Assembly (NCBI GenBank): GCA_964631965.1
Contig: CAZWAR010000003.1
Coordinates: forward strand, 2,064 to 66,063
Direction: 5' to 3'
From: an uncultured Gaiellales bacterium
GTDB taxonomy: Bacteria > Actinomycetota > Thermoleophilia > RBG-16-64-13
Length of the DNA stretch: 64,000 nucleotides
Shown here: positions 29,295 through 64,000 of the stretch, piece by piece
How positions within the stretch are numbered: position 1 is the first letter of the stretch
Layout of the letters: each line of letters begins with the position of its first letter
Position numbers and translations under genes: made by a program
The notes under the pieces: generated by a model
Told to the model about the DNA's origin: nothing
The model's database searches: none
The model's input: only the letters and a program-made list of their open reading frames with translations

Positions 29295-29744
29295 TCAGTC
29301 TTGGGGTTGAGGCTCGGGCGGGAGGTTCGTTGTGAACCTGATCCTATCCTCGGGAGTGCCCGTGGGCTGGTGAAAGAAGGTGGGATTGCTGCAGGCAGCG
29401 CTCGCTGCCCCCGGGTACGCCTGTTCCACCCACACCTTGCACTGTTTGCGCGGCGAGCGATTGAGCTTGATGGCCCCGTACGTATCGACCCCCCGCGCAC
29501 GGCCGCGGCGGTTCTCGAACGCCGAGAGGTCGAATTCGGGCGCAAAGACCTTGTGCAGGCAGCCGAACATCCTGGTCTCGTCGTCGTCATACACGTAGAC
29601 CGAGGAGCAACCGGAATCGAGGCAATGCTGGGGCGAGACGACCCTCTCACAGATGACCTCGCACTCCCGGCACTCCAAACGGGTACGCTGCAGCCGGCGT
29701 CTCCATGCTCCAAGCCTGCTAGAGATGCGGGAATGTCTCTCCAT
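29295..29744 (-). CDS. Cys-rich hypothetical protein (unknown function)
   Basis: 149 aa with CRECEVICE...HCLDSGCSS...FGCLHK. I recognise no family. Confidence 0.4.
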   Translation of the reverse strand: MERHSRISSRLGAWRRRLQRTRLECRECEVICERVVSPQHCLDSGCSSVYVYDDDETRMFGCLHKVFAPEFDLSAFENRRGRARGVDTYGAIKLNRSPRKQCKVWVEQAYPGAASAACSNPTFFHQPTGTPEDRIRFTTNLPPEPQPQD

Positions 29745-29807: not shown

Positions 29808-30809
29808 TCATTCGACGGCCTCACGGCGCGTACCGGGTACCAGCCTCGTGCGCACCAGGGATCGGTCGGTGGCCCAGCGAAGCACTGCAGGTGAGAACGT
29901 CACTCCGCCGTCGACCCCCATGTCAACAGTTCGCGTGGCGAACACGGCCCCATGCAGCCTCGTCCCCTCCAGGAACACAGCTCCCCCGTCAGCGACGATG
30001 ACCCCGTACACGTCCCCGCGTTCGCTCGCATCCACCGATGCCCCACCGATGACCACGAACAGAGCCGGCATGGTCGCCTCGTTCCCCCAATCGGCCGGTA
30101 TGGAGGTGGTCCCGGACCGGCGATCAAAGATTATGACCTGCGGACCCGGTGCCAGACCGTCCCGGGCGGGGAGACCGTCTGCACCGACAGCCGGCGCGGA
30201 GTCCATGCAAAAACGCCGCCAGCCGTCATCGAGGCCCCACGAACGCCCTAGCCCACTCAGGCTGACACCTGGACCGAGAAGTGGTGACGGTGAAGCCATC
30301 CTCACAAGTCCGGTCGGCTGAAGGCCTACGGCCTCCTCGGTCTGCAACCAGGCATTCGCCCGCCCGGACGCCCAGGTGACCTGATCGGCCACCAAGCCGA
30401 CGAAAGGCAAATCGAATCCGTCGCTTCCGCGCTCGATCCATGCAGACACCTCGACCGGCAACACCGACGTCTCATGCGCCGCGGTGACCTCGAGTAGCAG
30501 GTCCGGGCTCCCCGTCCCCGCGGCGACACTCGCCCACACCCCCGCCGGCCAGCCGTCGCGAGCGTCAAGTCGCCGCTCGAACGTACTCCAAGAACCGAGC
30601 AGGTCGTCGCGCACCCATGCCAGTGCGCTATCGTTCTCTTCCATCAACAGCCGTCCCCTGGCCTCGGCTTCGTTGCCGCTGTCGAGACACACCGCCACAG
30701 CGGCCACCACCTGGACCAGCACCGCTACCCCCAGGCAGACGAACAACACCAACAGGAGAATGGACCCCTCCTCGCGGGCAGACGCGGGCCGCCCGGAGAG
30801 GCCGCTCAC
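29808..30809 (-). CDS. GspK/ComGG-like pilus-associated membrane protein (N-terminal TM helix, no Glu+5)
   Basis: In-frame GTG at 30809 overlaps the TGA of the upstream pseudopilin (GTGA coupling). The N-terminus is VSGLSGRPASAREEGSILLLVLFVCLGVAVLV. It is the last gene of the pseudopilin run. Confidence 0.5.
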   Translation of the reverse strand: MSGLSGRPASAREEGSILLLVLFVCLGVAVLVQVVAAVAVCLDSGNEAEARGRLLMEENDSALAWVRDDLLGSWSTFERRLDARDGWPAGVWASVAAGTGSPDLLLEVTAAHETSVLPVEVSAWIERGSDGFDLPFVGLVADQVTWASGRANAWLQTEEAVGLQPTGLVRMASPSPLLGPGVSLSGLGRSWGLDDGWRRFCMDSAPAVGADGLPARDGLAPGPQVIIFDRRSGTTSIPADWGNEATMPALFVVIGGASVDASERGDVYGVIVADGGAVFLEGTRLHGAVFATRTVDMGVDGGVTFSPAVLRWATDRSLVRTRLVPGTRREAVE

Positions 30810-31465
30810 CGACCCACCTCGGTTGAAGCCACCATTTCCGGCCGACCAGGACCACGATCGGCTCGGCCGACCAGATGAATGAAAACCGTGTCGAGCTGAC
30901 AAAGCGTAGTGGCCGGCATCGCGTCGCATTCTTGCCCGAGGCAAACGAAAGAGAACCTCGAGCTGGTGGTGTCCACGTCCTCCAGCATGGTCTTGCTGTC
31001 GCGATAGAGGGCGTGAGGGAAGACCTCGGGCATGAGAGCCGGACAGAAGCCCCAGCGACGCATGAGCGTCCCCCCTATCAACTCCCATTCGACTATGGTC
31101 GACACTCCCGAATCAGACAACCGGAGCAACACGAGCTGGGATGGCGTGGCCTGCAGAACCAGCCCGTCGACTTGGAAGGCGCAGCCGGAAGCGGTGGAGA
31201 GCCGCACATCCTGCTCGAGCCTCGCCACCGCCACCCGCCCCTGCGCGACCCACACCGCGTTGTCTCCCTCGACTGCCGCTAAGGACTCCAACGACACCCA
31301 GATGGGTGCCACTGCGAGTGCCAGACACAGGGCAAGAGCAAGGCCGAGGAGCACCTCTATGAGCGAATAACCCTCCGAGCCGGCGGCTCCGACCCCCCTC
31401 CTCTCGGGCCGGCACGCCCCCCGCATGCTCCTGACCCACCGGTCGAGGCGTACCGTCCGAGACCT
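30806..31465 (-). CDS. Prepilin-type N-terminal cleavage/methylation domain pseudopilin
   Basis: ...GSEG|YSLIEVLLGLALALCLA (G-1, E+5). The start is assumed at MRSRTV. Confidence 0.65.
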   Translation of the reverse strand, partial: RSRTVRLDRWVRSMRGACRPERRGVGAAGSEGYSLIEVLLGLALALCLALAVAPIWVSLESLAAVEGDNAVWVAQGRVAVARLEQDVRLSTASGCAFQVDGLVLQATPSQLVLLRLSDSGVSTIVEWELIGGTLMRRWGFCPALMPEVFPHALYRDSKTMLEDVDTTSSRFSFVCLGQECDAMPATTLCQLDTVFIHLVGRADRGPGRPEMVASTEVGR

Positions 31466-31475
31466 CATAACCCGT

Positions 31476-32252
31476 CTAGAAGTAGAGGTCGACACCCCGC
31501 CCCTCCTCCATCCACCACCATTGCCATTGACCGCCGAGCGCCGCCCCGGCCCAGCCTGACACCGGCGGATCCGCGGTGAAGACCAAGCCTGGCGGATGCG
31601 CCATGACCGGCTCCGATCCCCAGGAGACGTGCATGGCGGACGTGCCCGCCTGGGGGCGATGGACCACCACGGCCGGACTGAACGAGGGCAACCCTGCCGA
31701 GACGTTCGCTGCCGGTGGGCCTCCGGTGGGAGCGGGGACGACCGACCGCCGGGGCGGCCCCCAGATTCCATCGCCGGTTCGGACCCGGGCGATCACTTCG
31801 TCGCCTTCGAGCCCTGTCCACTTCCAAGGTTCTATCCGCGTCTCTCCAGGCAGGTCGGGTTCGGCGCTCGCGTCGAGCACGGGCGTCTCCAGGAGGAGGA
31901 GCCCGTCCGCCCATATGCCCAGCGTGGCCTCCGATGTCGACGAACACGCCCCGGGCGCGGTGCTCACATGTAGAACCGGCCCCGGACCCCACCAAGCCCC
32001 AGCCACTCTGGGGCCCCACTCCCAGGCCGCGGCCGTAGCGGGTGCCCAGGCCGCGGACTGAGCGCCGGCAGCCTGTCTCGCCAATCGAGACCGTTCGACC
32101 ACACCGGCGAACGCTGTGAAGAGAGGAACCACCAGGATCCCTACGAGCGCAACGGCCGCGATGACCTCCAAGAGTATGAAGCCGTCTCGCAACCGCAGGA
32201 GGCGTCGCAGGGTGCGCGCTCGCCTCCTTTTCACTGCGCCGCCTCCTCGCAA
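31476..32252 (-). CDS. Prepilin-type pseudopilin
   Basis: ...LRDG|FILLEVIAAVALVGILV prepilin motif; 258 aa. Confidence 0.65.
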   Translation of the reverse strand: MRGGGAVKRRRARTLRRLLRLRDGFILLEVIAAVALVGILVVPLFTAFAGVVERSRLARQAAGAQSAAWAPATAAAWEWGPRVAGAWWGPGPVLHVSTAPGACSSTSEATLGIWADGLLLLETPVLDASAEPDLPGETRIEPWKWTGLEGDEVIARVRTGDGIWGPPRRSVVPAPTGGPPAANVSAGLPSFSPAVVVHRPQAGTSAMHVSWGSEPVMAHPPGLVFTADPPVSGWAGAALGGQWQWWWMEEGRGVDLYF

Positions 32253-32761
32253 GACCTCCTGGTGAGGCCACTCTCCAGACGCACCGTGACCCGGTAGTCG
32301 TCGCCCGGAGCTTTGAAGTAGACGGAGCCGGCCGCATTGGGATGACCGGAGAGAGCGGCAAAGACGACGATCACCCCCTGGGCGGTCCGCCAGCGGGGAA
32401 CGTTTGCGACCTCGGCCACTGGGGGAACGGCGCTCCCGAGGTCCCAGCTGCTGCCACCCGGGTCCGCCGCTACGGCCAGGCCGGCGGGTGACGATTCGAG
32501 GACTTCATTCGTCCCCTGCCACACTGCTCCGGTTTGGGCGCACGCTGCCGCCACCTGCCATATCTGGGCTCCGCCCCTTGCCTCCACCGTCTCGATACCC
32601 CGGGGCAGCAGCACCAGCCCGATTGCGAGACAGATCCCCAGTAGTACGAGGACGACCAGCAGCTCGACGAGCGAGTGCCCCGATTGTCCGGAAACTACCG
32701 GGTGGGCGGAGGCTGGATGAGCGGCCCGCGAGCGAAGCCTTGAGTGCGTCCCACTTTGCAT
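32231..32761 (-). CDS. Prepilin-type pseudopilin (GspH-like position)
   Basis: ...SGQSG|HSLVELLVVLVLLGI (G-1, E+5). The N-terminal extent is uncertain. Confidence 0.6.
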   Translation of the reverse strand: MQSGTHSRLRSRAAHPASAHPVVSGQSGHSLVELLVVLVLLGICLAIGLVLLPRGIETVEARGGAQIWQVAAACAQTGAVWQGTNEVLESSPAGLAVAADPGGSSWDLGSAVPPVAEVANVPRWRTAQGVIVVFAALSGHPNAAGSVYFKAPGDDYRVTVRLESGLTRRSCEEAAQ

Positions 32762-32933: not shown

Positions 32934-33479
32934 CTACCAGCCTAGTCCCGCAGTCCCCTCGATGACCTTCACCTTCACGTAGCCGCTCTCAGAAACGTTC
33001 AGCGCGTTGACCTGGATGCCGAACATGTTACCGCTCTCGCTCTTGCACGCCAGGTCGACGATATCCCCCGACTCTGGGTAGTACTCCACCTGGTTTGCCG
33101 CCGCGTCGGCGGTTAGCGCGTCGCTTATCCAGGCCGGTTCCGTGCTCACCAGATCATCGTCGGCCCGAATGAAATCGATACTCGGCTCGATGGCGTGAAG
33201 ATCGTCCGCTTCGATCAGTGTGTAGTCGTTTGTATCGACGAAAGCGCCCTGGATCGCGGTGAGAGAGTTTCGAACCAGCGAGTAGGCCGCTGCGTCCTGG
33301 GCGTGCTGGCGCTGCCCCATGAAGGTGGGGATGGCAATGGTGGCCAACACGGCGATGATGATGATGACGACCAGCAGTTCGATGAGCGTGAACCCGGCCG
33401 CGGCGTGACTCCCGACTCGGAGACTCCGCAGCATCCGCTGCCAGCGCCTGTTCCACATTATCTTCTCGATGGTCTTCAT
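32934..33479 (-). CDS. Type IV pilin (PilA-like major pilin), paralog 1
   Basis: ...AAAG|FTLIELLVVIIIIAVLATIAIPTFMGQRQ; C-terminus ...GTAGLGW. Confidence 0.8.
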   Translation of the reverse strand: MKTIEKIMWNRRWQRMLRSLRVGSHAAAGFTLIELLVVIIIIAVLATIAIPTFMGQRQHAQDAAAYSLVRNSLTAIQGAFVDTNDYTLIEADDLHAIEPSIDFIRADDDLVSTEPAWISDALTADAAANQVEYYPESGDIVDLACKSESGNMFGIQVNALNVSESGYVKVKVIEGTAGLGW

Positions 33480-33513: not shown

Positions 33514-34158
33514 TCAGGACGTGCTAGGGGTCGTGTTGTTCAAGTCCAGGGTGAGCCCCGATGCCGCAGCTATCCGACGCAACTCGTCCACTTCTCCCGC
33601 TCTTCCCTGCCGCTCGAGGAGCGAGATCAATACCACATAGGCGTGGGGATAGGAGCTGTCAGTCACCAGTGCCCTTCGCAAGCTGGCCTCAGCCGATTCT
33701 TCTTCTCCGGCGGATAACTGGGCCGAGCCCAAGAAGCTGAGATACTGAGCCGTGGGCTGGAGCCGACACGCTTCCTCGAATACCTGCACGGCTTTCCCGG
33801 CCTGCTCTTGGTGGTTCAGATAGTTGAACCCCAGTTCCACCCTGATCTGGGCTTCTCCGGGGTCCATCTCCACAGCCTTCTCCTGGACGGGAAGCGCTTC
33901 ATCCCACCGACGCTGAACGTACAGCACGGCGGCGAGAGCTTTCGTGGCAGAGACATCATCGGGATGCGCCGCCACGCATTGCTGGTAGAGCTTCGCGGCT
34001 GCGGCGAGATCCCCGGACTCCATCGCCTTCCCGGCTTGAGAAAGCGTACCGGAGCAGCTCGCCAGGGCGACGGCCAGCAGCACGAACGAGACCATGGATA
34101 CCCAGCGGGTGATGGTCGCTCTGTGGTTTGTGTCTGCCCGGTCGGGTCTTTCCTGCAT
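33514..34158 (-). CDS. TPR-repeat lipoprotein
   Basis: 214 aa with a signal peptide and lipobox (ALASCSG) and TPR-like repeats. Located between the two pilin paralogs. Confidence 0.65.
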   Translation of the reverse strand: MQERPDRADTNHRATITRWVSMVSFVLLAVALASCSGTLSQAGKAMESGDLAAAAKLYQQCVAAHPDDVSATKALAAVLYVQRRWDEALPVQEKAVEMDPGEAQIRVELGFNYLNHQEQAGKAVQVFEEACRLQPTAQYLSFLGSAQLSAGEEESAEASLRRALVTDSSYPHAYVVLISLLERQGRAGEVDELRRIAAASGLTLDLNNTTPSTS

Positions 34159-34292: not shown

Positions 34293-34775
34293 TTACCAGC
34301 CGGCGCTGGTGTCGCCGTCGATGGTCTTGACAAAGGTCGTCGAGCCTCCGGCGCCCTTGTCGGTCACCACGCCGAACACGTTGCCGGATTCGCTAGCGGT
34401 CGCGATCTCGAAAGTGGTGCCATCGCCGAAGAAGTCCACGGCAGCGTCGGTAGCCACCTGGGTCGCAGCCACGGCCGGCGTATCCGCGCAGACGCCGCCG
34501 TCGGCGTCTTTGACGAATTCAATCGACGGCTCGATAGCGTTGAGCTCGTCGCCGGTCACATCATACGTGCGGGAGTCGACATAGGCGGATTCCAGGGCGG
34601 TCATGGCATTGCGGACGAGTGATTTAGCAGCTGCGTCCTGGGCTTTCTGACGCTGGCCCAGGAAGGTCGGGATGGCGATCGCCGCCAGGATGGCGATGAT
34701 GATGATCACCACCAGGAGTTCGATGAGGGTGAAACCTTTTTCGCCCTTCATCCTTTTGTGGATCTTCATGAACAT
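34293..34775 (-). CDS. Type IV pilin (PilA-like major pilin), paralog 2
   Basis: MFMKIHKRMKGEKG|FTLIELLVVIIIIAILAAIAIPTFLGQRQ...SAGW. GGAGGAGGA Shine-Dalgarno 8 nt upstream of the start. Confidence 0.8.
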   Translation of the reverse strand: MFMKIHKRMKGEKGFTLIELLVVIIIIAILAAIAIPTFLGQRQKAQDAAAKSLVRNAMTALESAYVDSRTYDVTGDELNAIEPSIEFVKDADGGVCADTPAVAATQVATDAAVDFFGDGTTFEIATASESGNVFGVVTDKGAGGSTTFVKTIDGDTSAGW

Positions 34776-35312
34776 CGTGTGTGTTCCTCCTCCTGTTTGT
34801 TCGCGGACTCTTTTTGTTTGAGACCGCGAACCTTTCGCGGCCCAGCACGCCAGGTGTGACGTACCGCTTTCTTCATCGGCCAGTGTGGGGCAGGACTTTA
34901 GGGTTTCTTTTGCGACTTTGGTGCAATTTTGGCGCGGCTGTCTACTGAGAGCTCGCACACGCACGTCGAACGCGCCCTATATGGACCATTCGAAGCCCCG
35001 AACGGCACCTCGGCCTAAAGGCCCAACCCGCGCCTGCCGATACTCCTGACAGGACTAGAACGGGGGTCAACGTGGTCCCGGCCGAGTCTTCTCGGATCCC
35101 TCCTCCAGAGAGGGTCATTCATCCGCCATGCGGCCGAAACCTCAAGGCTTGTGCGGTTCTGCCGATACACATGGAGAACCCATCGAGGGAGGCACCGAGG
35201 CATGAATGCTTCAGCGCTCAGGTATAGGATCGGTCCGGCCAGATCCTCAGATGATCGCCCGTGTCCAGACGCGCGCCGTCGCGGAACCGGAGACCGGCAC
35301 CGCCTGCGCGAG

Positions 35313-36881
35313 ATGGTTGGACGCACTCGAGGCTTCACCGTAGTCGAGGTGCTGGTCGCGGGTCTGGTGCTCGTGGTCGGCCTCATCTTCATCGCCCACT
35401 TCTTCACGGCCTCGGCCATGCGCGTGCTCGCCTCCGACACCCGGTCGGTCATGGCTCAGATCGCCACCGAGGAAATCGAGACGATCCGCGGTCTGCAGTA
35501 CCAGGACATCGGCACGGTCGGCGGCCACCCGCCCGGGCAACTCGCAGCCGTCGAGACCGTCAACAGGGAAGGGAGCGACTTCGAGATCCAGCGAGACATC
35601 ACTTACTTCGAGGACGACGCGTACTCCGGGCCGTATCCGGCCAACTACCGCCGGGTCACAGTCACCGTTACCGCGCTCGATAGCGACGCTCTCGACCCCG
35701 TCGTCATGACTACGAACATCGCGGGTGGTGCGAAAGGAGGCACCCTCGACATCACCGTCACCGATCTGAGCGGTCAGGGCCTGCCGGACGCTCCCCTCGT
35801 CATCTCGGACAACCTGCTGGTCCCCCACGTCTTGATAAACGCCCCCACCATCCGCACCGACGGAACCGGCCATCTCCAGGTGCCCGGCTTGACCGAGGAC
35901 CCCAACGGCGGCTATTTCGTCAGCGCGAGTTACCCGGGCTACAACAGCGCAGCCCTGGAACAAGGGGTAGTCGTCGCGACGGGCCAGACCACGGTGGTCC
36001 AACTGATCATGGACAGGCTTGCGACCATGCACATCCACCTGACGGACCAGTATGGCACCGCCCTCTCAGGGGTCCCTCTCCGGGTCACGGGATTCCTGTC
36101 CGTTAGCCCATGGACCTTTGAGCAGACAGTCACCACCGATAGCAGCGGCAATGCCACACTCGAGGACATCCGGTTCTCGACCTCTCTCGAGCCGTACTTC
36201 ATCGAGCTCGTCACACCGCACAATCCGCCGCTGGCTCTGCCCACCGGCGTGAGCGCGCCTGCCATCGATTCCAGCTTCCTGCCTCTCCCGGACGGTAAGA
36301 TCCCGGTAATCCTCGATCCCGGTCAGACCCAAACTGTCAACCTCGTCGTATCCACCGGTCCTGCCGTCACTTCCGTAAGTCCGGCCAGCGGCGGCCCGTC
36401 CGGCGGCACCACAGTTGTCATCAACGGTGCGAACTTCAATGGAGCCACCGCAGTCAAGTTCGGCAGTACCGACGCGGCCAGCTTCGTCGTCGACTCCGCT
36501 GCCCGCATCACTGCGGTCTCTCCGGCAGGCTCCGGCACCGTAGACATCACCGTGACCACACCCAACGGCACTTCGGCCCAGGTCGCGGCCGACCAGTACA
36601 CCTACGTGTCGCTTCTTCCCCCAACGGTGCAAGCTGTGAGCCCCAGCAGTGGCTACCGGGGTGGCGGCACGACGGTAGTCATCACCGGCACGAACTTCGT
36701 CAACGTGACCAAAGTGCAGTTCGGATACCGGGATGCGGACAGCTTCATCGTCGAGTCCAGTACGACGATCCGGGCCGTCACACCTTCGGGCTGGGGCACT
36801 GTCGACGTGACCGTCACCAATTCGGCGGGGGCCTCAGATACCTGGTGGGGCGACTGGTTCACATACACCTGGCGCAGGTAG
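35313..36881 (+). CDS. Modular prepilin-type protein with beta-sandwich and two C-terminal IPT/TIG domains (putative pilus adhesin / minor pilin)
   Basis: MVGRTRG|FTVVEVLVAGLVLVVGLIF prepilin leader; internal PEGA/CarboxypepD_reg-like segments; two IPT-like repeats (PAVTSVSPASGGPSGGTTVVINGANF..., PTVQAVSPSSGYRGGGTTVVITGTNF...). Confidence 0.7.
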   Translation: MVGRTRGFTVVEVLVAGLVLVVGLIFIAHFFTASAMRVLASDTRSVMAQIATEEIETIRGLQYQDIGTVGGHPPGQLAAVETVNREGSDFEIQRDITYFEDDAYSGPYPANYRRVTVTVTALDSDALDPVVMTTNIAGGAKGGTLDITVTDLSGQGLPDAPLVISDNLLVPHVLINAPTIRTDGTGHLQVPGLTEDPNGGYFVSASYPGYNSAALEQGVVVATGQTTVVQLIMDRLATMHIHLTDQYGTALSGVPLRVTGFLSVSPWTFEQTVTTDSSGNATLEDIRFSTSLEPYFIELVTPHNPPLALPTGVSAPAIDSSFLPLPDGKIPVILDPGQTQTVNLVVSTGPAVTSVSPASGGPSGGTTVVINGANFNGATAVKFGSTDAASFVVDSAARITAVSPAGSGTVDITVTTPNGTSAQVAADQYTYVSLLPPTVQAVSPSSGYRGGGTTVVITGTNFVNVTKVQFGYRDADSFIVESSTTIRAVTPSGWGTVDVTVTNSAGASDTWWGDWFTYTWRR

Positions 36882-36885
36882 AGCT

Positions 36886-37596
36886 ATGAACAACAAGACA
36901 ATCTCATCGAAGGCCCGCTTCTGGCTCTCGCTACGGAGCCCCAGAGGATTCACGCTGATCGAACTGCTGGTGGTCTGCCTGACCGCGGGCATCCTGGGTA
37001 TGGCCATCCTAGGCGTATACGAGAGCGTCATGCGCTCGTGGGCCGACACCAGCCACCGCATCGTCAACCAGGACGACGCGCGCTACGCCATCAACGAGAT
37101 CGCCCGCTACCTCCGCATGGCTGAGTCCTCGGCCTCCAACCTCTCGTCCCAGTCGGACGCAATCGCTACGGCCACGGCGAGCGAGCTCGTCTTCTACGCC
37201 GATATCAACGGCGATGGACTGGCCGAGAAGTGCCGGTACTACCTGGATGGTACGACTCTCCGGCTGGCCACCCTTCCCCCGGATACCTCCGACAGCCCGC
37301 CTACCTACCCCACTGAGTACGTCACCGACGGAGTCGTCATCATGCAGGGCATCCAGGACCCCAATCTGTTTACGTACTACAGGCTGAACCCGGCATACGC
37401 CCTCAATCCCATACCGGAGAATGACACCCTGGAACAGGTGGTCAATCCCGCTTCAGCGGCCGATCTGCGGAGCATTGTCGCCGTCGACATCCGTCTTCGG
37501 GTGAACGAGACTCCCGGCTTGCCGAAGGCCAATGTGGCCTTGGACACCCGTGTCCAGATCCGCCAGCGCTACAACGGAGGTCTCAGTGGAGTCTAG
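36886..37596 (+). CDS. PilW-like minor pilin (prepilin-type)
   Basis: ...SPRG|FTLIELLVVCLTAGILGMAILG; 236 aa. Confidence 0.65.
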   Translation: MNNKTISSKARFWLSLRSPRGFTLIELLVVCLTAGILGMAILGVYESVMRSWADTSHRIVNQDDARYAINEIARYLRMAESSASNLSSQSDAIATATASELVFYADINGDGLAEKCRYYLDGTTLRLATLPPDTSDSPPTYPTEYVTDGVVIMQGIQDPNLFTYYRLNPAYALNPIPENDTLEQVVNPASAADLRSIVAVDIRLRVNETPGLPKANVALDTRVQIRQRYNGGLSGV

Positions 37597-39139
37597 ATCT
37601 CGCACCATCGGCCGTCTACCGGGTCGCCTCGGCCTGCGACTGCAGAGCGAGCGCGGTTACGTGTTGATCCTCGCCATGCTGGTGTTGGTAGCCATCGGTA
37701 TGGCCTCGGCCGCCCTGCTCTCGGCGATATCCGTGAACCAGCAGCACGTGTCCCGCGACCGGTCCTACTCGCAGTCGCTCACTGTGGCGGAAGCGGGCTT
37801 GAACCAGTACCTCTGGATGGTGGCGAGCGGAGAAAGCTCGCGCAGCAACGGTTTCGCCATCGCCGGCAACACCGAGGCCGATGACCCCTTGTTCAAGGAA
37901 TTCGAGTTCAACGACATCCACGATGCCTCGGTCAAGGGTGTGTACGCCACGCAGGTGTCCCCTCCCAGCGCAACGAACCCGAACGTGACCGTGACGGTCA
38001 CCGGGCAGGCGACCTCGCCCATGGACACTCCGAGAACCGTCACTGCTTCTCTCGGGCGTCCCTCGTTCAGCCAATACCTGCTGCTCACCAACGACGAGGT
38101 CTGGATCGGTGGGCCGCTCGATCGCGTCTGGCACGGCAAGACCTTCTCGAACACCGGCATCTGTGTGGACACGGCCAACCTCGTCGAGACGATGTCCTGT
38201 TCCAGGGCCACGTATTCCAGCAGCATGTTCGGAGGCACTCGCAACGGCGTCTGGTCGGGCTACCTGTATACAGTCCCCCTCAACGATCCTTCCCGGGCGC
38301 TGTGGCAGTTCCCCGTGCCGGCCATCAGCTTCTCGACGGTGACCTCGGACTTCGTCAATCTGAACAGCCTGGCCGTAGGCAACGGGGTGAACCTACCGTA
38401 CTCAACAAGTACTTCGCACGGAGAAACCCAGGGTTGGTATATCAAGCTCCTACCGGACGAGAAGTACCAGATCAAGCGAGTGACCGCGGAAAGTGAGTCG
38501 ACGGGCGGGAGCGGCGGCAGCCTCAGCTACGTGAACCCCAGTTCCCCGGTTCCGAGCACGATTCTTAGCTACCCGACCAACGGCGTCATCTACGTGAACG
38601 ACAATGTGTGGGTGGAGGGCACCGACATCGATGGGCGCATCACCATCGCCAGTTCCGGGCAGCTCAACCCAACCGGCAAGAACTCGGCCACCTCCATCCA
38701 CATCGTGGGCAACCTCACCTACTCCCACAAGGATGGCACGGTCGCCGTGGGCCTCATCGCTCAGAACGACATCGAGATACCCCGATACGCGCCTTTGGGA
38801 GCGGGCGGTTCCGTCTCCCTGCAGGACATGGAGATCGACGCCGCGCTCATCGCGCAGCAGGGCAGAGAGTCCTGCAACGCGGCCGATTCGCTCAACAACG
38901 CATACGGGCCCGTCCGCGACATGCTCACCATCTACGGTTCGGTCAGCTCGTACCACACGCCCTATCGCAGCACGGTCAACAACTACGGTACGACCCTGGG
39001 CGGCTTCGCCAACGGCACGAACACGTACGACCCCTGGCTGCTGAACGACCCGCCGCCGTACTTCCCCACGGTCGGGAGCTACCAGATCCTGAACTGGCAG
39101 GAGTTGCCCAATACCCAGTCGGTGCTTCCCAGCCCATGA
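37586..39139 (+). CDS. PilX-like minor pilin with large C-terminal beta-helix-like domain
   Basis: GTG start after a GGAGG Shine-Dalgarno. PilX_N-like segment ERGYVLILAMLVLVAIGMASAALLSA...LTVAEAGLNQ. C-terminal repeated VxVxGxxIxGxI strands. Confidence 0.6.
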   Translation: MESRSRTIGRLPGRLGLRLQSERGYVLILAMLVLVAIGMASAALLSAISVNQQHVSRDRSYSQSLTVAEAGLNQYLWMVASGESSRSNGFAIAGNTEADDPLFKEFEFNDIHDASVKGVYATQVSPPSATNPNVTVTVTGQATSPMDTPRTVTASLGRPSFSQYLLLTNDEVWIGGPLDRVWHGKTFSNTGICVDTANLVETMSCSRATYSSSMFGGTRNGVWSGYLYTVPLNDPSRALWQFPVPAISFSTVTSDFVNLNSLAVGNGVNLPYSTSTSHGETQGWYIKLLPDEKYQIKRVTAESESTGGSGGSLSYVNPSSPVPSTILSYPTNGVIYVNDNVWVEGTDIDGRITIASSGQLNPTGKNSATSIHIVGNLTYSHKDGTVAVGLIAQNDIEIPRYAPLGAGGSVSLQDMEIDAALIAQQGRESCNAADSLNNAYGPVRDMLTIYGSVSSYHTPYRSTVNNYGTTLGGFANGTNTYDPWLLNDPPPYFPTVGSYQILNWQELPNTQSVLPSP

Positions 39140-39188
39140 GAGCCCCGGACGGGCCGCGGCGCCGTCTGGCTCCTTGGCTGCCTGCCGC

Positions 39189-39617
39189 TCAACGACCGCT
39201 GCTACCGAAGCCTCCCTGGCCCCTGCTGGTGTCGCCGAGTTCGTCCACGGCGAGATAATCGGGCTCTTCCACCTTCTGGATCACGAGTTGCGCGATCCGC
39301 TCCCCTACGGCGACCGTGAACGGTGCGGCTCCTGAATTGTAGAGCGACACTCGCACCTCGCCACGGTATCCGGCGTCGATCAGACCGGGGGAGTTCGTCA
39401 GCATGATGCCGTGCTTGAAGGCCAGCCCGGAGCGGGGTTGCACGAACCCCCCATAGCCCTCCGGGATGGCCAGAGCGATGCCCGTGCCCACCTCCCGGCG
39501 CTCGCCCGAGGGGATGGTCACCTCCTCCACCGCGAAGAGATCCGCACCGGCGTCGCCCGGATGGGCCCGGCGAGGTAGCTGAGCCTGCGGGTGGAGCAGG
39601 CGGACCCAGAGTTCCAC
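39189..39617 (-). CDS. dut: dUTP diphosphatase
   Basis: 142 aa; GDAGADLF, RSGLAFKHG and GLIDAGYRGEV motifs. Confidence 0.9.
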   Translation of the reverse strand: MELWVRLLHPQAQLPRRAHPGDAGADLFAVEEVTIPSGERREVGTGIALAIPEGYGGFVQPRSGLAFKHGIMLTNSPGLIDAGYRGEVRVSLYNSGAAPFTVAVGERIAQLVIQKVEEPDYLAVDELGDTSRGQGGFGSSGR

Positions 39618-41917: not shown

Positions 41918-42838
41918 TCAGCCCCCGGCCAGATCCAGGATCTCGCGGGCCATGTCCTCCGGTTCCCTGTCTCGGACGTTCATCATAACAGCGTCCTTGA
42001 CCTTCCGTAGCCAGGTGAGCTGCCGTCTGGCGTAGCGCCTGGTAGCCGCCGCCATCTCTTCTGCGGCCTCCTCCCGCGACAACCTCCCGTCCAGGTATCC
42101 GCAGATCTCCGGGTACCCGATCGCACTCCGTATGCCGGACCCTCCAGGCAGGGTCGTCTCCGGGCCGCGAGCCTCGCGGAAGCGTCGCACCTCCTCGATA
42201 GCCCCCTCCTGCAGCATCCGCCCAACCCGCGCGTCGATACGCGGGTAGAGGATTTCACGATCCAGCGTCAGTCCCACCACGAGGGTGGGCCGCTCGTAGC
42301 GAGGGTTCCACAGATCGTCCCGTCCGGACCATCCCGCTCCCCCTACCAGCACTGCCTCCAGGGCCCGCACTACTCTCCTCGAGTTCCGCGGATCAACCGC
42401 TACGGCGGCAGCCGGATCGAGGCGGGCGAGTTCGGCGTGCAGCGCGCCGGGACCTTCGCCTGCTGCGCGCTCTTCGAGACGGGCCCGCACCTGGGCGTCA
42501 CCGGGGGCTACGGCCAGAGGAGCGACCGCCGCCCTCAGGTACAGTCCCGTACCGCCGGCCAGCAAGGCCACCCCGTGCGCAGCCACGTCTTCAGCGACGA
42601 GCGGCCGGGCACAGTCCGCGTACTGCGCGGCGGAGAAGGGTGCGAGCGGGTCGACGAAACCGACGAGCGCGTGCTGCGCTCCCTCCGTGTCCCGTAGCCG
42701 CGGCTGGTTCGTGAGCACCGGGAACCCCACGTAGACCTGCATCGAATCGCACGAGACGACCCGCACGCCGAGAGTGGTGGCAAGGGCGGTAGCCACTGCG
42801 GTCTTGCCGACCGCCGTTGGGCCGAGAAGGCCGATGAC
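41918..42838 (-). CDS. miaA: tRNA dimethylallyltransferase
   Basis: Start MVIGLLGPTAVGKT; VSCDSMQVY motif. Confidence 0.85.
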   Translation of the reverse strand, partial: VIGLLGPTAVGKTAVATALATTLGVRVVSCDSMQVYVGFPVLTNQPRLRDTEGAQHALVGFVDPLAPFSAAQYADCARPLVAEDVAAHGVALLAGGTGLYLRAAVAPLAVAPGDAQVRARLEERAAGEGPGALHAELARLDPAAAVAVDPRNSRRVVRALEAVLVGGAGWSGRDDLWNPRYERPTLVVGLTLDREILYPRIDARVGRMLQEGAIEEVRRFREARGPETTLPGGSGIRSAIGYPEICGYLDGRLSREEAAEEMAAATRRYARRQLTWLRKVKDAVMMNVRDREPEDMAREILDLAGG

Positions 42839-42951
42839 CATCCCGGCACCCGGCGCGGATCGGAGGCCGTCCGCTCTTTCTTGGCCTTGGAGACCGGGCG
42901 CCCGACCGGCCGCCGCCCGCGCAGACCCTCTGCCGGGGTCGGGACCGGCGC

Positions 42952-44304
42952 TCATGGCGCTTCCCGGCCCCGGAAGCTCGTGGATGTGGCCTCCAGAAGT
43001 TCCACCATGACGAGGTCCCCCGGAGCGGCCGTCGAAGAGAAGTTCACCGGTTTGTGCCCACGGGTACGCCCCATCACCTCTCCCGCGCCGTGGCGGCTGG
43101 TCCGTTCCACCAAGACCTCTACGATGCGGCCCAGCATTGCCTGATTGTGTTCCCGTCCCAGCCGCTGCACCAGGTCGACCAGACGCGTCATCCGCTCCTC
43201 GCCCACACCGGGAGCGAGGCGGCCGGGCAGCCCCGCAGCCGCCGTGCCGCGTCGCGGGGAGTAGATGAATGTGAAGGCCGCGTCGTACCTGCACTCTTCC
43301 ACCAGGGACAGCGTCTGCTCGAAATCAGCTTCCGTTTCACCGGGGAAACCGACTATCAGGTCGGTGGTGAGCGCCACTTCCGGTACCGCCCGACGCAGCC
43401 GCCCTACCAGGTCGAGATATCCGGCCCGGTCGTACCGCCGGTTCATCGCGGCCAGAACGCGGTCGCTCCCGGACTGCACCGGCAGATGGACGTGCTCGCA
43501 CACCGGGTTGTCTCCGGCAATAAGGGCTATCAGGGCGTCGGACATGTCTTTGGGGTGAGAGGTCATGAAGCGCACCCGGCGTATTCCCTCCACCTCGGAT
43601 GAAGCGTGGAGCAGATCGGCGAACGACTCCTTCCCTCGGAAGGCCGGTTCCTTACCGTAGGCGTTGACGTTCTGCCCGAGAAGCGTGATCTCCCGTACAC
43701 CGGAGGCCGCCAACTCCTCGATCTCGCTGACGATGTCCTCAGCGGGACGGGATGCTTCCGGCCCTCGCACGGAGGGCACGATGCAGTACGTACAGTGATT
43801 GCTGCAGCCCGCAACGACCTGCACCCAGGCAGATGGACCATCCACTCGCACGCGGGGCAGATCTGCGCTCCAGCGCGTCGTGGTCTCCGCAAAGGCGCCC
43901 ACAGCTCGCTCCCCCGCCCAGCGCCGCGCCAGCAGCCCAGGGAGTTCATGCAGGCTCTGCGGCCCCAGCAGGACGTCGACGAACGGGAACTCGCGGAAGA
44001 ACCCCTCCTTACGGCTCTGGGCAAGGCAGCCGGCCACCACCACCAATCGAGACGGCCGCTCCCTCTTCAGGCGGGCGGCATCCCCCAGATGGCCGGCGAG
44101 CCGGGTATCGGCCTTCTCCCGTATGGAGCAGGTGTTGTAGAGAAGAAGGTCGGCGTCCCTGGGCGTGGCGGCCGCCTTCATACCCATTTCTTCGAGCAAG
44201 CCAGCGATGCGCTCCGAATCGTGCTCGTTCATCTGACAGCCGAAAGTGCGCAGAAAGTAGAGGCGAGGAGCTGCGTAGCCGGTCCCGCTCATCACTCTCT
44301 CCAT
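42952..44304 (-). CDS. miaB: tRNA-2-methylthio-N6-dimethylallyladenosine synthase
   Basis: 450 aa with an MTTase N-terminus (FGCQMNEHDSE), a radical-SAM CSNHCTYC motif and a TRAM domain. Confidence 0.85.
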   Translation of the reverse strand: MERVMSGTGYAAPRLYFLRTFGCQMNEHDSERIAGLLEEMGMKAAATPRDADLLLYNTCSIREKADTRLAGHLGDAARLKRERPSRLVVVAGCLAQSRKEGFFREFPFVDVLLGPQSLHELPGLLARRWAGERAVGAFAETTTRWSADLPRVRVDGPSAWVQVVAGCSNHCTYCIVPSVRGPEASRPAEDIVSEIEELAASGVREITLLGQNVNAYGKEPAFRGKESFADLLHASSEVEGIRRVRFMTSHPKDMSDALIALIAGDNPVCEHVHLPVQSGSDRVLAAMNRRYDRAGYLDLVGRLRRAVPEVALTTDLIVGFPGETEADFEQTLSLVEECRYDAAFTFIYSPRRGTAAAGLPGRLAPGVGEERMTRLVDLVQRLGREHNQAMLGRIVEVLVERTSRHGAGEVMGRTRGHKPVNFSSTAAPGDLVMVELLEATSTSFRGREAP

Positions 44305-47002: not shown

Positions 47003-48076
47003 CTAGTCGGCCGCGGTGTCCGCTGCCGCCTCGGCCTCCGTCGGCCCGGCATCACCGGCAGCCGCCCGGGCACGGGCGCCGTCGCCCTCGGCCCATTCAG
47101 GGTTCACCGCGTCGATGACCTCGCGCCGTAGTTGGGCCACCAGTTCCTGGTTGTCGCGGAGGAACTGCCGCACGTTCTCCCGACCCTGACCGAGACGCTG
47201 GTCCCCGTAGGAGAACCAGGCGCCGCTCTTCTGCACGATCTTGTTCTCGACTGCCAGGTCGAGCACATCCCCTTCGGAGGAGATGCCCACTCCGTACATG
47301 ATGTCGAACTCCGCCTCTTTGAACGGCGGCGCCACCTTGTTCTTGACCACCCGCACCCGCACTCGGTTGCCCACGGCCTCCGTGCCCTCCTTCAAGGTCT
47401 CGATGCGGCGGATATCCAGACGAACCGAGGCGTAGAACTTGAGCGCCCGACCGCCCGGCGTGACCTCCGGGTTGCCGAACATGACCCCCACCTTCTCGCG
47501 GAGTTGGTTGATGAACACGGCTGTGGTCTGGGTCTTGCTGATCGTCCCGGCCAGCTTGCGCAGAGCCTGGCTCATGAGGCGGGCCTGAAGACCGACGTGG
47601 GAGTCACCCATCTCGCCTTCGAGCTCCGCCCGGGGCGTAAGCGCCGCGACTGAGTCGATGACCACGATGTCCAAAGCGCCGCTGCGGATAAGAAGCTCGG
47701 CGATCTCCAGAGCCTGCTCCCCGTTGTCGGGTTGCGACACCAGCAGCTCGTCGATGTTGACCCCGATCTTGCGTGCGTAGGCGGAGTCCATAGCGTGCTC
47801 GGCGTCGATGAACGCTGCTTTGCCCCCGGCCCTCTGGGCCTCAGCGATCATGTGAAGGGCGAGCGTGGTCTTGCCGCTCGATTCCGGACCGAATATCTCC
47901 ACCACTCGGCCGCGTGGCACCCCGCCCACTCCCAGAGCCAGGTCGAGCCCCAGCGAACCGGTGGAGATGGCCGGTACCTTCAGCACCGCTTCGTCACCCA
48001 GCCGCATGATGGACCCCTTGCCATACTGTCGCTCTATCTGCAGAACGGCCATTTCCAAGGCCTTGTCCTTTTCCAC
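47003..48076 (-). CDS. recA: Recombinase A
   Basis: 357 aa with [12 protein letters not shown] Walker A and full RecA core conservation. Confidence 0.97.
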
Positions 48077-62034: not shown

Positions 62035-64000
62035 CTAGTAGATATACACGTACGTCCCCACCGCCACCAGCGGATATATGGCGTCCTGATCCCAGTAGAG
62101 GGTCCGCACGCAGCCGTGACTGGCCGGATAGGTGGGCACGCTCGGATAGCCGTGGATAGCCAGCAGCGTCGTGCTGATGTACAGCGGGTGGTACCGCGGG
62201 CTGGTCTCCATTGTCTTGCGGGTCACCGTGTACGTGCGCGACGGGGTGACGATGCCCACGCTCGCACTTCCTGTTGACACGGGGATGGTCCAAACGACTG
62301 CCCCGTCCTTGCAGTAGAGCAGCACCTGCTTGGTCTTGTTCACTTCGATCCATGGGTTGGTTGCTCCGATCCTGCTTGGGCGGGGCCGGCTGGCCACCGT
62401 CAGCGCGTTGAGGACGGCAGCCGAGACCTTGCCGTCACGGGTGAGACCCTGCCACTTCTCGAAGGCGATGATGGCTCCCGTCGTCTTGCCGTCGAAGACG
62501 CCGTCGACGGTGCCGGGCCGGTATGACAGGTCGCTCAGCCTCTGTTCGACCCACAACCGTTGCCCTGCGGTCAACGTCAGTTCCCAAGGAAGCGTCCCCC
62601 GTATGTCGAAAGCATCAACGCTGATGAACGCTCCCTCGTCGTTCCCCTCGTCCCACGTGATCTCCACCACGTGCTCGCCGCTCCTCAGAAGGCCGGTGCT
62701 CCACGCCGCCTCCTGATAGACCGTACTGGGACTGTACAGGTCCACCAGTACGGGAGCGCTGCCGTCCACCGATACCTCCGCCGAGCCCATCTCCGGACCG
62801 AGAGTCGCGATCCAATCGAGACGGGTCCCGACGAAGTCGACGGTGATACCGCTGCCGCCGCCTCCCAGTTTGTAGTTCCCCCCCGAGGCGGACGGCGATG
62901 AGGCCACGTGCCAGGTGCCCGCGTTCAGCAGCCGCGGATCGTCCTGTTCGTAGCGCGCGGTGAAATAGGCCTGCAGCACATCACCCTCCACATCGAAGGC
63001 ATCGACGCTGATGTACTTGCCGACCGGATTGGAGGTGTCGTACCAGATCTTGACCTCGTGATCTCCCGGCGAGAGGTCCCCGGTCTCCCAGACCTTCTGC
63101 TGATAGGCCACCACGTCGGCCGCAAGGTCTACGTTCACGGCCGGACCCCCGTCCACCGACACGAACGCTCTTGCGAGGGTGGTTCCTCTGGTGGCGATCC
63201 AAGCGAGATAGGTCCCATTGAAGTCGACAACCGCAGCACCCGTCGGGCTGCTGGTGCGGGCATAGCTACCACCGGACGCGTTGCTCGTGAAGAACTCGGC
63301 CCAGGTGCCGCCTCCGAACGCTATACGCCCGTCTGTCTGGTCTACCCGACCCATCCCGCTGAGCGAGCCCAGCACGTCCACGGCGTCGATGGTGACGAAC
63401 TCCCCATATGCGCTCGTGTCGCTGCGCACGATTTTGACCGTGTGGAGACCGCCGTCGAGGTCCCCGGTCGACCACACCCTCTGCTGGTAGACGGCCACGC
63501 TGTTGCGGAGGTCGACGGTGGCGGCGAAGGCGTCGTCCAGATACACCTCGGCGATGCCGGTGGTGGTGCCTCTCATGGCGATCCAGTCGAGCCGGGTGCC
63601 GGTGAAGCTGACGGTGACGGAGGCGTCGGCGCTCGAGGAGCGGCTGTAGCTGTCCTGCCAGGCCAGGGTCTTGGCGAAGGGGGCCCAGCCACCGGCGTAG
63701 AAGAGGCGGGCGTCGGTCTGGTCGTAGCGCATCATGAAGGTGTAGTCGTCGGCGGCGGTGTTCGGGCTCGCGCCTCCGGCCGCCGTCACCACCACATCCA
63801 CCTTCCCGGTCGCGTGAGCCGGAGTGACCGCGGTGATCCGGGTGTCGGAGTCCACGGTGTAGCTGGCCGCGTCCATCCCTCCGAAGGACACCGCCGAGGA
63901 GCCCGAGAGGCCGGTGAAGCCGGTGCCGGTGATGACGAGGGGAACGCCTCCGGCGCTGGGGCCGGAATCGAGGCTGAGGCCGGTCACGGTGGGGGCAGGG
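62035..64000 (-). CDS. L,D-transpeptidase (YkuD) family protein with IPT/TIG domain and tandem ~120-aa repeats; 5' end beyond window
   Basis: C-terminal YkuD catalytic domain (HGYPS...ASHGCVRT), a peptidoglycan-binding-like segment and three tandem repeats (about 62602-63732). The reading frame stays open to the window edge. Confidence 0.75.
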   Translation of the reverse strand, partial: PAPTVTGLSLDSGPSAGGVPLVITGTGFTGLSGSSAVSFGGMDAASYTVDSDTRITAVTPAHATGKVDVVVTAAGGASPNTAADDYTFMMRYDQTDARLFYAGGWAPFAKTLAWQDSYSRSSSADASVTVSFTGTRLDWIAMRGTTTGIAEVYLDDAFAATVDLRNSVAVYQQRVWSTGDLDGGLHTVKIVRSDTSAYGEFVTIDAVDVLGSLSGMGRVDQTDGRIAFGGGTWAEFFTSNASGGSYARTSSPTGAAVVDFNGTYLAWIATRGTTLARAFVSVDGGPAVNVDLAADVVAYQQKVWETGDLSPGDHEVKIWYDTSNPVGKYISVDAFDVEGDVLQAYFTARYEQDDPRLLNAGTWHVASSPSASGGNYKLGGGGSGITVDFVGTRLDWIATLGPEMGSAEVSVDGSAPVLVDLYSPSTVYQEAAWSTGLLRSGEHVVEITWDEGNDEGAFISVDAFDIRGTLPWELTLTAGQRLWVEQRLSDLSYRPGTVDGVFDGKTTGAIIAFEKWQGLTRDGKVSAAVLNALTVASRPRPSRIGATNPWIEVNKTKQVLLYCKDGAVVWTIPVSTGSASVGIVTPSRTYTVTRKTMETSPRYHPLYISTTLLAIHGYPSVPTYPASHGCVRTLYWDQDAIYPLVAVGTYVYIY

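Follow-up and report, generated by a model that had tools for sequence, protein, structure and literature searches.

What is the role of a protein that begins like a minor pilin of the PilX class and continues into a large beta-helical domain, in an actinobacterium that has never been cultured? We addressed this question for one gene, hereafter the target, in a 64,000-nucleotide stretch of DNA (the window) from an uncultured Gaiellales bacterium (Actinomycetota, Thermoleophilia; GenBank assembly GCA_964631965.1, contig CAZWAR010000003.1). A first-pass annotation of the window, made from the sequence alone, had described the product as a PilX-like minor pilin with a repetitive, beta-helix-like C-terminal domain of ~400 aa. 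Our analysis indicates, with a probability that we put at roughly 80%, that the protein forms the distal cap in the priming (tip) complex of a type IV pilus (T4P), that is, a PilX/GspK-class minor pilin with the architecture of ComZ. The observations on which this reading is based are fold resemblance, the pattern of glutamate at position +5 (Glu5) among the pilin genes, synteny and operon context. Coordinates of all features are collected in Table 1.

The target open reading frame (ORF) is a genuine gene because G + C content differs between third (GC3, 0.84) and second (GC2, 0.50) codon positions and because 196 full-length homologs, with identities of 47-83%, were recovered in a word-indexed search. 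Its start codon is GTG (37586-37588) and its stop codon TGA (39137-39139), the product is identical to a 517-aa protein annotated by NCBI (P0001), and homolog starts fall at the equivalent position. The upstream ORF terminates with TAG at 37594-37596, beyond the target GTG, which gives an overlap of 11 nt. The GTG start, this overlap and the GGAGG Shine-Dalgarno sequence had all been described in the first-pass annotation and are borne out by the sequence, as are the motifs quoted there, namely LTVAEAGLNQ (aa 65), IYVNDNVWVEG (aa 335), IHIVGNLTY (aa 371) and IAQNDIEI (aa 391). The motif ERGYVLILAM is present at aa 22. A promoter and terminator scan of 34600..39400 returned nothing exceeding shuffled sequence.

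The N-terminus reads SERG/YVLILAM, where the slash marks the putative prepilin-peptidase site; residue +5 is Leu, so Glu5 is absent. The layout is that of PilX_N proteins: a Gly at -1 precedes a hydrophobic helix that lacks Glu at +5, and AEAGL (aa 68-72) follows ~45 residues past the Gly. Gly24 and Tyr25 are kept in at least 90% of homologs, and AEAGLNQYLWM (aa 68-78) is essentially invariant among them, with A68, A70, G71 and L72 invariant. The leader has a net charge of +3.5, and aa 1-21 have a predicted local distance difference test (pLDDT) score below 50 in the structural model. The PilX_N similarity claimed earlier is transitive, being seen in relatives and not in the target itself. PF14341 (PilX_N) matched 27 of 102 full-length relatives at E<=0.1 (best 7.4e-9), with the matches at the N-terminus in the alpha-1 region (aa 18-64 in P0131, for example), whereas the target did not reach the PF14341 gathering score of 25.5 bits and had no Pfam match at E<=1. 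Close homologs of the ComZ N-terminus are also matched by PF14341 and share the same layout (KG/IALV...AAEAGLQKY). Predicted membership of the target in the PilX_N minor pilins holds by transitive homology only.

A model of the protein was generated with AlphaFold2 from a 65-sequence alignment (pLDDT 85.2, predicted TM-score 0.73). In this model, a disordered basic leader (aa 1-21) is followed by a 57-residue helix (aa 25-81), four strands between aa 103 and 157, a beta-rich region (aa 164-480) and a final strand (aa 500-507). The beta-rich region forms a solenoid whose course is broken by a loop containing short helices (aa ~221-282) and by an excursion of consecutive strands (aa ~283-328). 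ComZ was the sole significant Foldseek match of the model in the PDB (E 4.9e-9, probability 1.0). Both the PilX-like pilin and the beta-helix proposed in the first-pass annotation are recovered, and its three strand motifs all lie on modeled beta-strands (aa 334-348, 371-379 and 387-398). The domain is shorter than had been claimed, at ~335 aa rather than ~400 aa, since ~80 residues after the helix belong to the pilin head. The description of it as repetitive holds for the coils of the solenoid but not for the sequence, in which self-BLASTP found no internal repeats (no off-diagonal match at E<=1000). Nor is the size anomalous for a PilX protein, as had been implied from a usual length of less than 200 aa, since solenoid-bearing PilX/ComZ proteins of ~500 aa have already been described in Thermus and cyanobacteria. 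Even across the broad family, P489, P490, P491, P494 and W504 hardly vary. Given the topology of ComZ and of cyanobacterial PilX, the strand at aa 500-507 probably rejoins the pilin sheet as its last strand; a conserved terminal strand after the solenoid is compatible with the ComZ insertion topology.

The resemblance to ComZ of Thermus thermophilus HB27 (PDB 6QVI; Salleh et al. 2019, PMC6561018) extends to size (517 aa vs. 498-534 residues in the 6QVI chains), the hydrophobic PilX_N-type helix with AEAGL, the GspK-like head, the place of the gene as last of a minor-pilin set, and the triangular solenoid of ice-binding type with its long loop, short helices and excursion of consecutive strands. 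In ComZ, the head resembles GspK and the solenoid resembles the ice-binding protein FfIBP, and a loop with a short helix (216-301) is followed by antiparallel strand pairs (301-362) (PMC6561018). The target model has the same pair of resemblances, with a GspK-like head carried on a long alpha-1 helix and a large triangular solenoid like that of DUF3494 proteins, and its elements appear to run in a parallel order, as judged from secondary-structure order and not from superposition. ComZ also binds a neighboring PilA2-type pilin. As expected of a ComZ-type tip pilin, the target is encoded with minor pilins, one PilV/GspI-like and one PilW/GspJ-like. The two proteins differ in that they share only 11-13% identity, with no significant sequence or profile match, and in that the global TM-score is low (0.29), so domain orientation differs. 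Furthermore, the target is acidic, its PilV partner bears TIG domains, and its hosts are presumed monoderm Actinomycetota, in which no passage through a secretin would be needed.

A second point of comparison is provided by cyanobacterial PilX proteins, in all of which the last strand is reported to be separated from the one before it by an inserted triangular solenoid of ice-binding type, and which form two subfamilies, PilX_Com and PilX_EPS/HpsA, tied to two minor-pilin sets (bioRxiv 10.64898/2026.02.12.705559, February 2026). By description, these proteins share with the target the pilin fold, the triangular solenoid, the lack of Glu5 and a dedicated PilV alongside. They belong to another phylum, and the target had no NCBIfam match at E<=1, including any HpsA model in that library. 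Pseudomonas PilX, in contrast, consists of about 195 aa without an additional domain and acts together with PilY1, a separate adhesin.

Genomic context agrees with a minor-pilin assignment. The target closes a tightly packed run of three co-directional genes, after the PilV-like and PilW-like genes. Both of these, and the other pilin genes in a motif scan, have Glu5, unlike the target. Nearly all Actinomycetota loci keep the trio in synteny, and it is recognizable in most Patescibacteria loci, where it lies inside operons of the order pilB-pilC-(pilin)-PilV-PilW-homolog-pilM (loci L032-L043, L051, L055 and L056; e.g., L056 4198..13904). The true start of the PilV-like gene is likely ATG 35313, where the motif G/FTVVE supplies Glu5. 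From that start, the PilV-like protein would have about 520 aa with an Ig-like region of MG4/CarboxypepD_reg type; its relatives have CarboxypepD_reg/Big-type domains instead.

In the mechanism that we propose, prepilin peptidase would remove the basic leader at Gly24, and the hydrophobic alpha-1 helix would anchor the protein in the membrane. Alpha-1 may then bundle with the corresponding helices of the TIG-bearing PilV/GspI-like product and the PilW/GspJ-like product, forming a GspI-J-K-like trimer that nucleates pilus polymerization. Because no subunit would add above one that lacks Glu5, the target would end up at the very tip of the pilus, and the solenoid would sit at the distal tip because it is too bulky for the body of the fiber, an argument also made for ComZ (PMC6561018). 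There, the ~335-residue triangular solenoid may plug the filament end and offer a binding surface; a PilY1-like plug role has been proposed for cyanobacterial PilX (bioRxiv 10.64898/2026.02.12.705559).

Several points weigh against this assignment. Direct sequence evidence for homology between the target and ComZ is marginal: PDB sequence searches with the single protein or a close-family profile returned noise only, the broad family profile (A2) ranked ComZ first with a non-significant E of 0.14, and an hhalign comparison of the family alignment (A1) with a ComZ alignment made up of N-terminal fragments only gave E 4e-4 and a probability of 34% over 29 columns. None of pilB, pilC, pilM, pilD and pilT is present in the 64-kb window. 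Prepilin peptidase cleavage after Gly24, the tip location and, by analogy, the trimer are all inferred. By analogy with ComZ, the solenoid probably interrupts the pilin head between its last two strands instead of being simply appended at the C-terminus. Finally, the evidence base consists of sequences from metagenome-assembled genomes (MAGs) with no cultured host.

If the target is a pilus cap, what does the solenoid bind? We lean toward adhesion to a surface or glycan rather than to DNA. A tip adhesin whose solenoid binds polysaccharide, a cell surface or mineral, like PilX_EPS/HpsA or the beta-helical tapirins of Caldicellulosiruptor, is favored by the TIG domains on the PilV-like partner, by the lectin-like Laminin_G_3, beta-propeller and Gly_rich_2 inserts in distant relatives, and by weak similarities to tapirins and other beta-helix adhesins. 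The similarity to tapirins is nevertheless modest and of a kind common to beta-helices, the broad alignment revealed no conserved residues of a binding site, and the NCBIfam result given above also counts against an HpsA-like protein; we consider adhesion a serious candidate that falls somewhat short of an even chance. The same tip-pilin framework could instead present a receptor for DNA in natural transformation, the counterpart in function of Thermus ComZ, which is the closest solved structure and binds double-stranded DNA (PMC6561018). In cyanobacteria, PilX_Com sets are required for transformation (bioRxiv 10.64898/2026.02.12.705559). The target is followed ~8 kb downstream by recA (47003..48076) and recX, and in L056 the recA-recX pair directly precedes the pilB operon, a weak association that may be due to chance. 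Set against these points, the mature protein is strongly acidic (isoelectric point 4.74, net charge about -16; solenoid isoelectric point 4.75), the 64-kb window contains no comEA, comEC or dprA, and the DNA-binding lysines of ComZ cannot be aligned at 11-13% identity. Competence was moreover unchanged in T4P-2 pilin mutants of Saccharibacteria TM7x (PMC11623550), which would bear on the target if those pilins belong to its family. DNA binding by the solenoid is therefore, in our judgment, unlikely.

Three further readings deny that the protein belongs to an extended T4P or that its solenoid serves as a cap, and each was rejected. The minor-pilin sets of type II secretion systems (T2SS) and T4P are homologous, and the pilin head matches GspK and XcpX, which would fit a GspK of a T2SS or a Com-type pseudopilus. 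This is very improbable given that there is no GspK family match in Pfam or NCBIfam, that the target has no alpha-helical insertion domain (GspK carries its own at a different point of the sheet, whereas the region after the target head is nearly all-beta in the model), and that relatives adjoin PilM-type genes. Two major-pilin-like genes nearby also argue against it, and, to our knowledge, Actinomycetota and Patescibacteria generally have no outer membrane and no T2SS secretin. Many right-handed beta-helices are polysaccharide lyases or hydrolases, and pectate lyase PelI appeared at rank 5 of the Foldseek matches, so a membrane-anchored, pectate-lyase-like glycoside hydrolase or lyase was also weighed; the first-pass annotation had suggested Pectate_lyase_3 as a family to check. 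The PelI match has E 1.5 and a TM-score of 0.10, neither Pfam nor NCBIfam gave a match, no acidic or basic catalytic residues are conserved in the broad alignment, and the fold is of the ice-binding/ComZ type, all of which makes an enzyme scarcely credible. That fold in turn might suggest a DUF3494 ice-binding or antifreeze protein with an incidental membrane anchor, a possibility that we consider negligible. The resemblance to DUF3494 proteins (ColAFP 3WP9, FfIBP) is in fold only, with no Pfam match to an ice-binding or any other family at E<=1, and loops with short helices replace the long flanking alpha-helix of those proteins. The target solenoid is, in addition, fused to a pilin module (N-terminal pilin helix and GspK-like head) in an entirely different genomic context, at the end of a minor-pilin operon, with relatives inside pilB...pilM operons. 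The authors of the ComZ structure judged the same fold resemblance to be uninformative on function (PMC6561018).

The family to which the target belongs is large. An exhaustive profile search matched 1348 clusters at 50% identity, and for 217 of these the match fell below 1e-30; genome-level matches were MAGs throughout. JGI labels among the 196 homologs were hypothetical, PilX or PulG. Close relatives come from Actinomycetota (Thermoleophilia, Gaiellales) and from one Anaerolineae-labeled bin; the best species-representative relative, with 82% identity, is an uncultured Actinomycetota MAG. More distant full-length relatives, sharing 22-30% identity, were found in Patescibacteria (Saccharibacteria, Parcubacteria, Kaiserbacteria and Paceibacterota) and in two Gammaproteobacteria-labeled bins. 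In the broad family, nearly every near-invariant position holds Gly, Pro, Trp or Tyr, which are structural residues, and no constellation of catalytic type is conserved in the alignment. Some distant members of 680-920 aa have extra modules after the N-terminal helix and ahead of the conserved head and solenoid: Laminin_G_3 (lectin-like) in P0257 and P0154, a DUF5122 beta-propeller in P0231, and Gly_rich_2 in P0203. The genomic context of P0127 and P0257 is limited to short contigs. Distant members with lectin-like or beta-propeller inserts come from Saccharibacteria, and by description the inserts resemble those of TM7x PilX1 (jelly-roll/lectin-like) and PilX2 (beta-propeller). In TM7x, PilX2 is required for host binding (PMC11623550). 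Like the target, PilX1 and PilX2 are large, modular PilX-type minor pilins that lack a canonical PilD signal, but the domains described for them are jelly-roll and beta-propeller, with no solenoid (PMC11623550).

Table 1. Features of the target gene and of the neighboring pilin genes (positions in the window; a slash in a motif marks the putative prepilin-peptidase site; TPR, tetratricopeptide repeat; IBP, ice-binding protein)
Feature	Position	Strand	Basis
Coding sequence of the target, PilX/GspK-class, ComZ-like minor pilin, 517 aa	37586..39139	+	Sequence, homologs, model, fold matches
Shine-Dalgarno GGAGG, 5-nt spacer to GTG	37576..37580	+	Read from sequence
Basic leader, aa 1-24 (6 Arg), ending at conserved Gly24; putative prepilin-peptidase site G/YVLIL	37586..37657	+	
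Alpha-1 helix, aa 25-81, hydrophobic N-terminal end, Leu at +5, AEAGLNQYLWM (PilX_N-type)	37658..37828	+	Model helix H25-81
Pilin head, aa 82-160, four beta-strands, GspK-like	37829..38065	+	
Beta-solenoid, aa ~161-495, ice-binding-protein/ComZ type	38066..39070	+	
C-terminal segment, aa 496-517 and stop, highly conserved PPPYFPTVGSYQILxWxELP motif, final strand 500-507	39071..39139	+	
PilV/GspI-like minor pilin, Ig-like region, two C-terminal IPT/TIG domains	35151..36881	+	TIG E 2.5e-22; type_IV_pilV N-terminus E 2e-5
PilW/GspJ-like minor pilin, 236 aa, G/FTLIE with Glu5, translationally coupled to the target	36886..37596	+	N_methyl E 3.4e-5; weak GspJ/GspH N-terminal matches
Major-pilin-like gene, G/FTLIE, likely true start ATG 34775, 34769 or 34751	34293..34964	-	N_methyl E 4.8e-9; PilA/GspG-type matches
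TPR protein between the two major-pilin-like genes, synteny conserved	33514..34158	-	TPR families
Second major-pilin-like gene	32934..33479	-	N_methyl E 5.8e-7
Second minor-pilin cassette, four genes	29808..32761	-	
Cassette gene, G/HSLVE	32231..32761	-	
Cassette gene, G/FILLE	31476..32252	-	
Cassette gene, G/YSLIE, true start probably internal	30806..31771	-	
Second PilX-type cap, 333 aa, shorter IBP-like solenoid, no Glu5	29808..30809	-	

The window holds a second minor-pilin cassette on the opposite strand, which ends in a second solenoid-bearing protein of the PilX type (Table 1). When this second cap (29808..31088 as query) was compared with the target family profile using hhalign, no relation was found past the transmembrane helix, and what the two caps have in common is predicted architecture only. 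Cyanobacterial genomes likewise have two minor-pilin sets, each with its own solenoid cap, and by analogy the arrangement in the window suggests that two differently tipped pili could be made by one machinery, as has been proposed for cyanobacteria. The TPR protein between the major-pilin-like genes has a possible lipoprotein signal, and the order pilin-TPR-pilin is kept in about a dozen Actinomycetota loci. A Cys-rich ORF of 149 aa (29295..29744, minus strand; CRECEVICERVV...CLDSGCSS) lies between RNase Z and the cassette. The remainder of the window is core chromosome (recG, priA, metK, dut, dapF, miaA/B, rny, recX, recA, ftsK, rnj and pnp). Near its end, 62035..63987 (minus strand) encodes a 650-aa protein with TIG, CE2_N, PG_binding_1 and YkuD L,D-transpeptidase domains, an unusual multidomain cell-wall enzyme. 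Four mechanically called ORFs, at 30806..31771, 34293..34964 and 41918..43294 on the minus strand and 35151..36881 on the plus strand, are much longer than the likely genes; prepilin motifs lie 55-134 residues into the over-long pilin ORFs, and miaA, as called, overlaps with miaB. These genes probably start further in, as is typical of a genome with 65% GC.

The combination of a large PilX protein with a solenoid is not new, being known from ComZ (2019) and from cyanobacterial PilX (2026 preprint); what is new is the lineage. No description of a solenoid-PilX design in Actinomycetota or Patescibacteria was found in the searchable literature. Our analysis extends the design, a PilX/GspK cap without Glu5 in which an ice-binding-like solenoid replaces PilY1, to uncultured Actinomycetota (Thermoleophilia, Gaiellales) and to Patescibacteria, and delineates a large family (1348 clusters at 50% identity) that escapes the current models of Pfam and NCBIfam. 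Hundreds of "hypothetical proteins" can now be named, and experimentalists gain a candidate that may act as a tip adhesin or receptor, although the result is not a new kind of machine. Two solenoid caps, each with its own minor-pilin set, stand side by side at one locus, which echoes the cyanobacterial two-pilus model. Type IV pili of Patescibacteria mediate an episymbiotic lifestyle. More tentatively, and with odds that we place below even, a ComZ-type cap may be a standard, perhaps ancestral, T4P tip module across Terrabacteria (Deinococcota, Cyanobacteria, Actinomycetota, Chloroflexota-labeled MAGs and Patescibacteria), where it would replace PilY1 and serve as a modular scaffold, with at least two caps per genome as a routine condition. 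If so, the scaffold would accept lectin, beta-propeller and glycine-rich inserts, multiple caps would give rise to differently tipped pili, and the PilX adhesins by which episymbiotic Saccharibacteria bind their hosts would belong to the target family.

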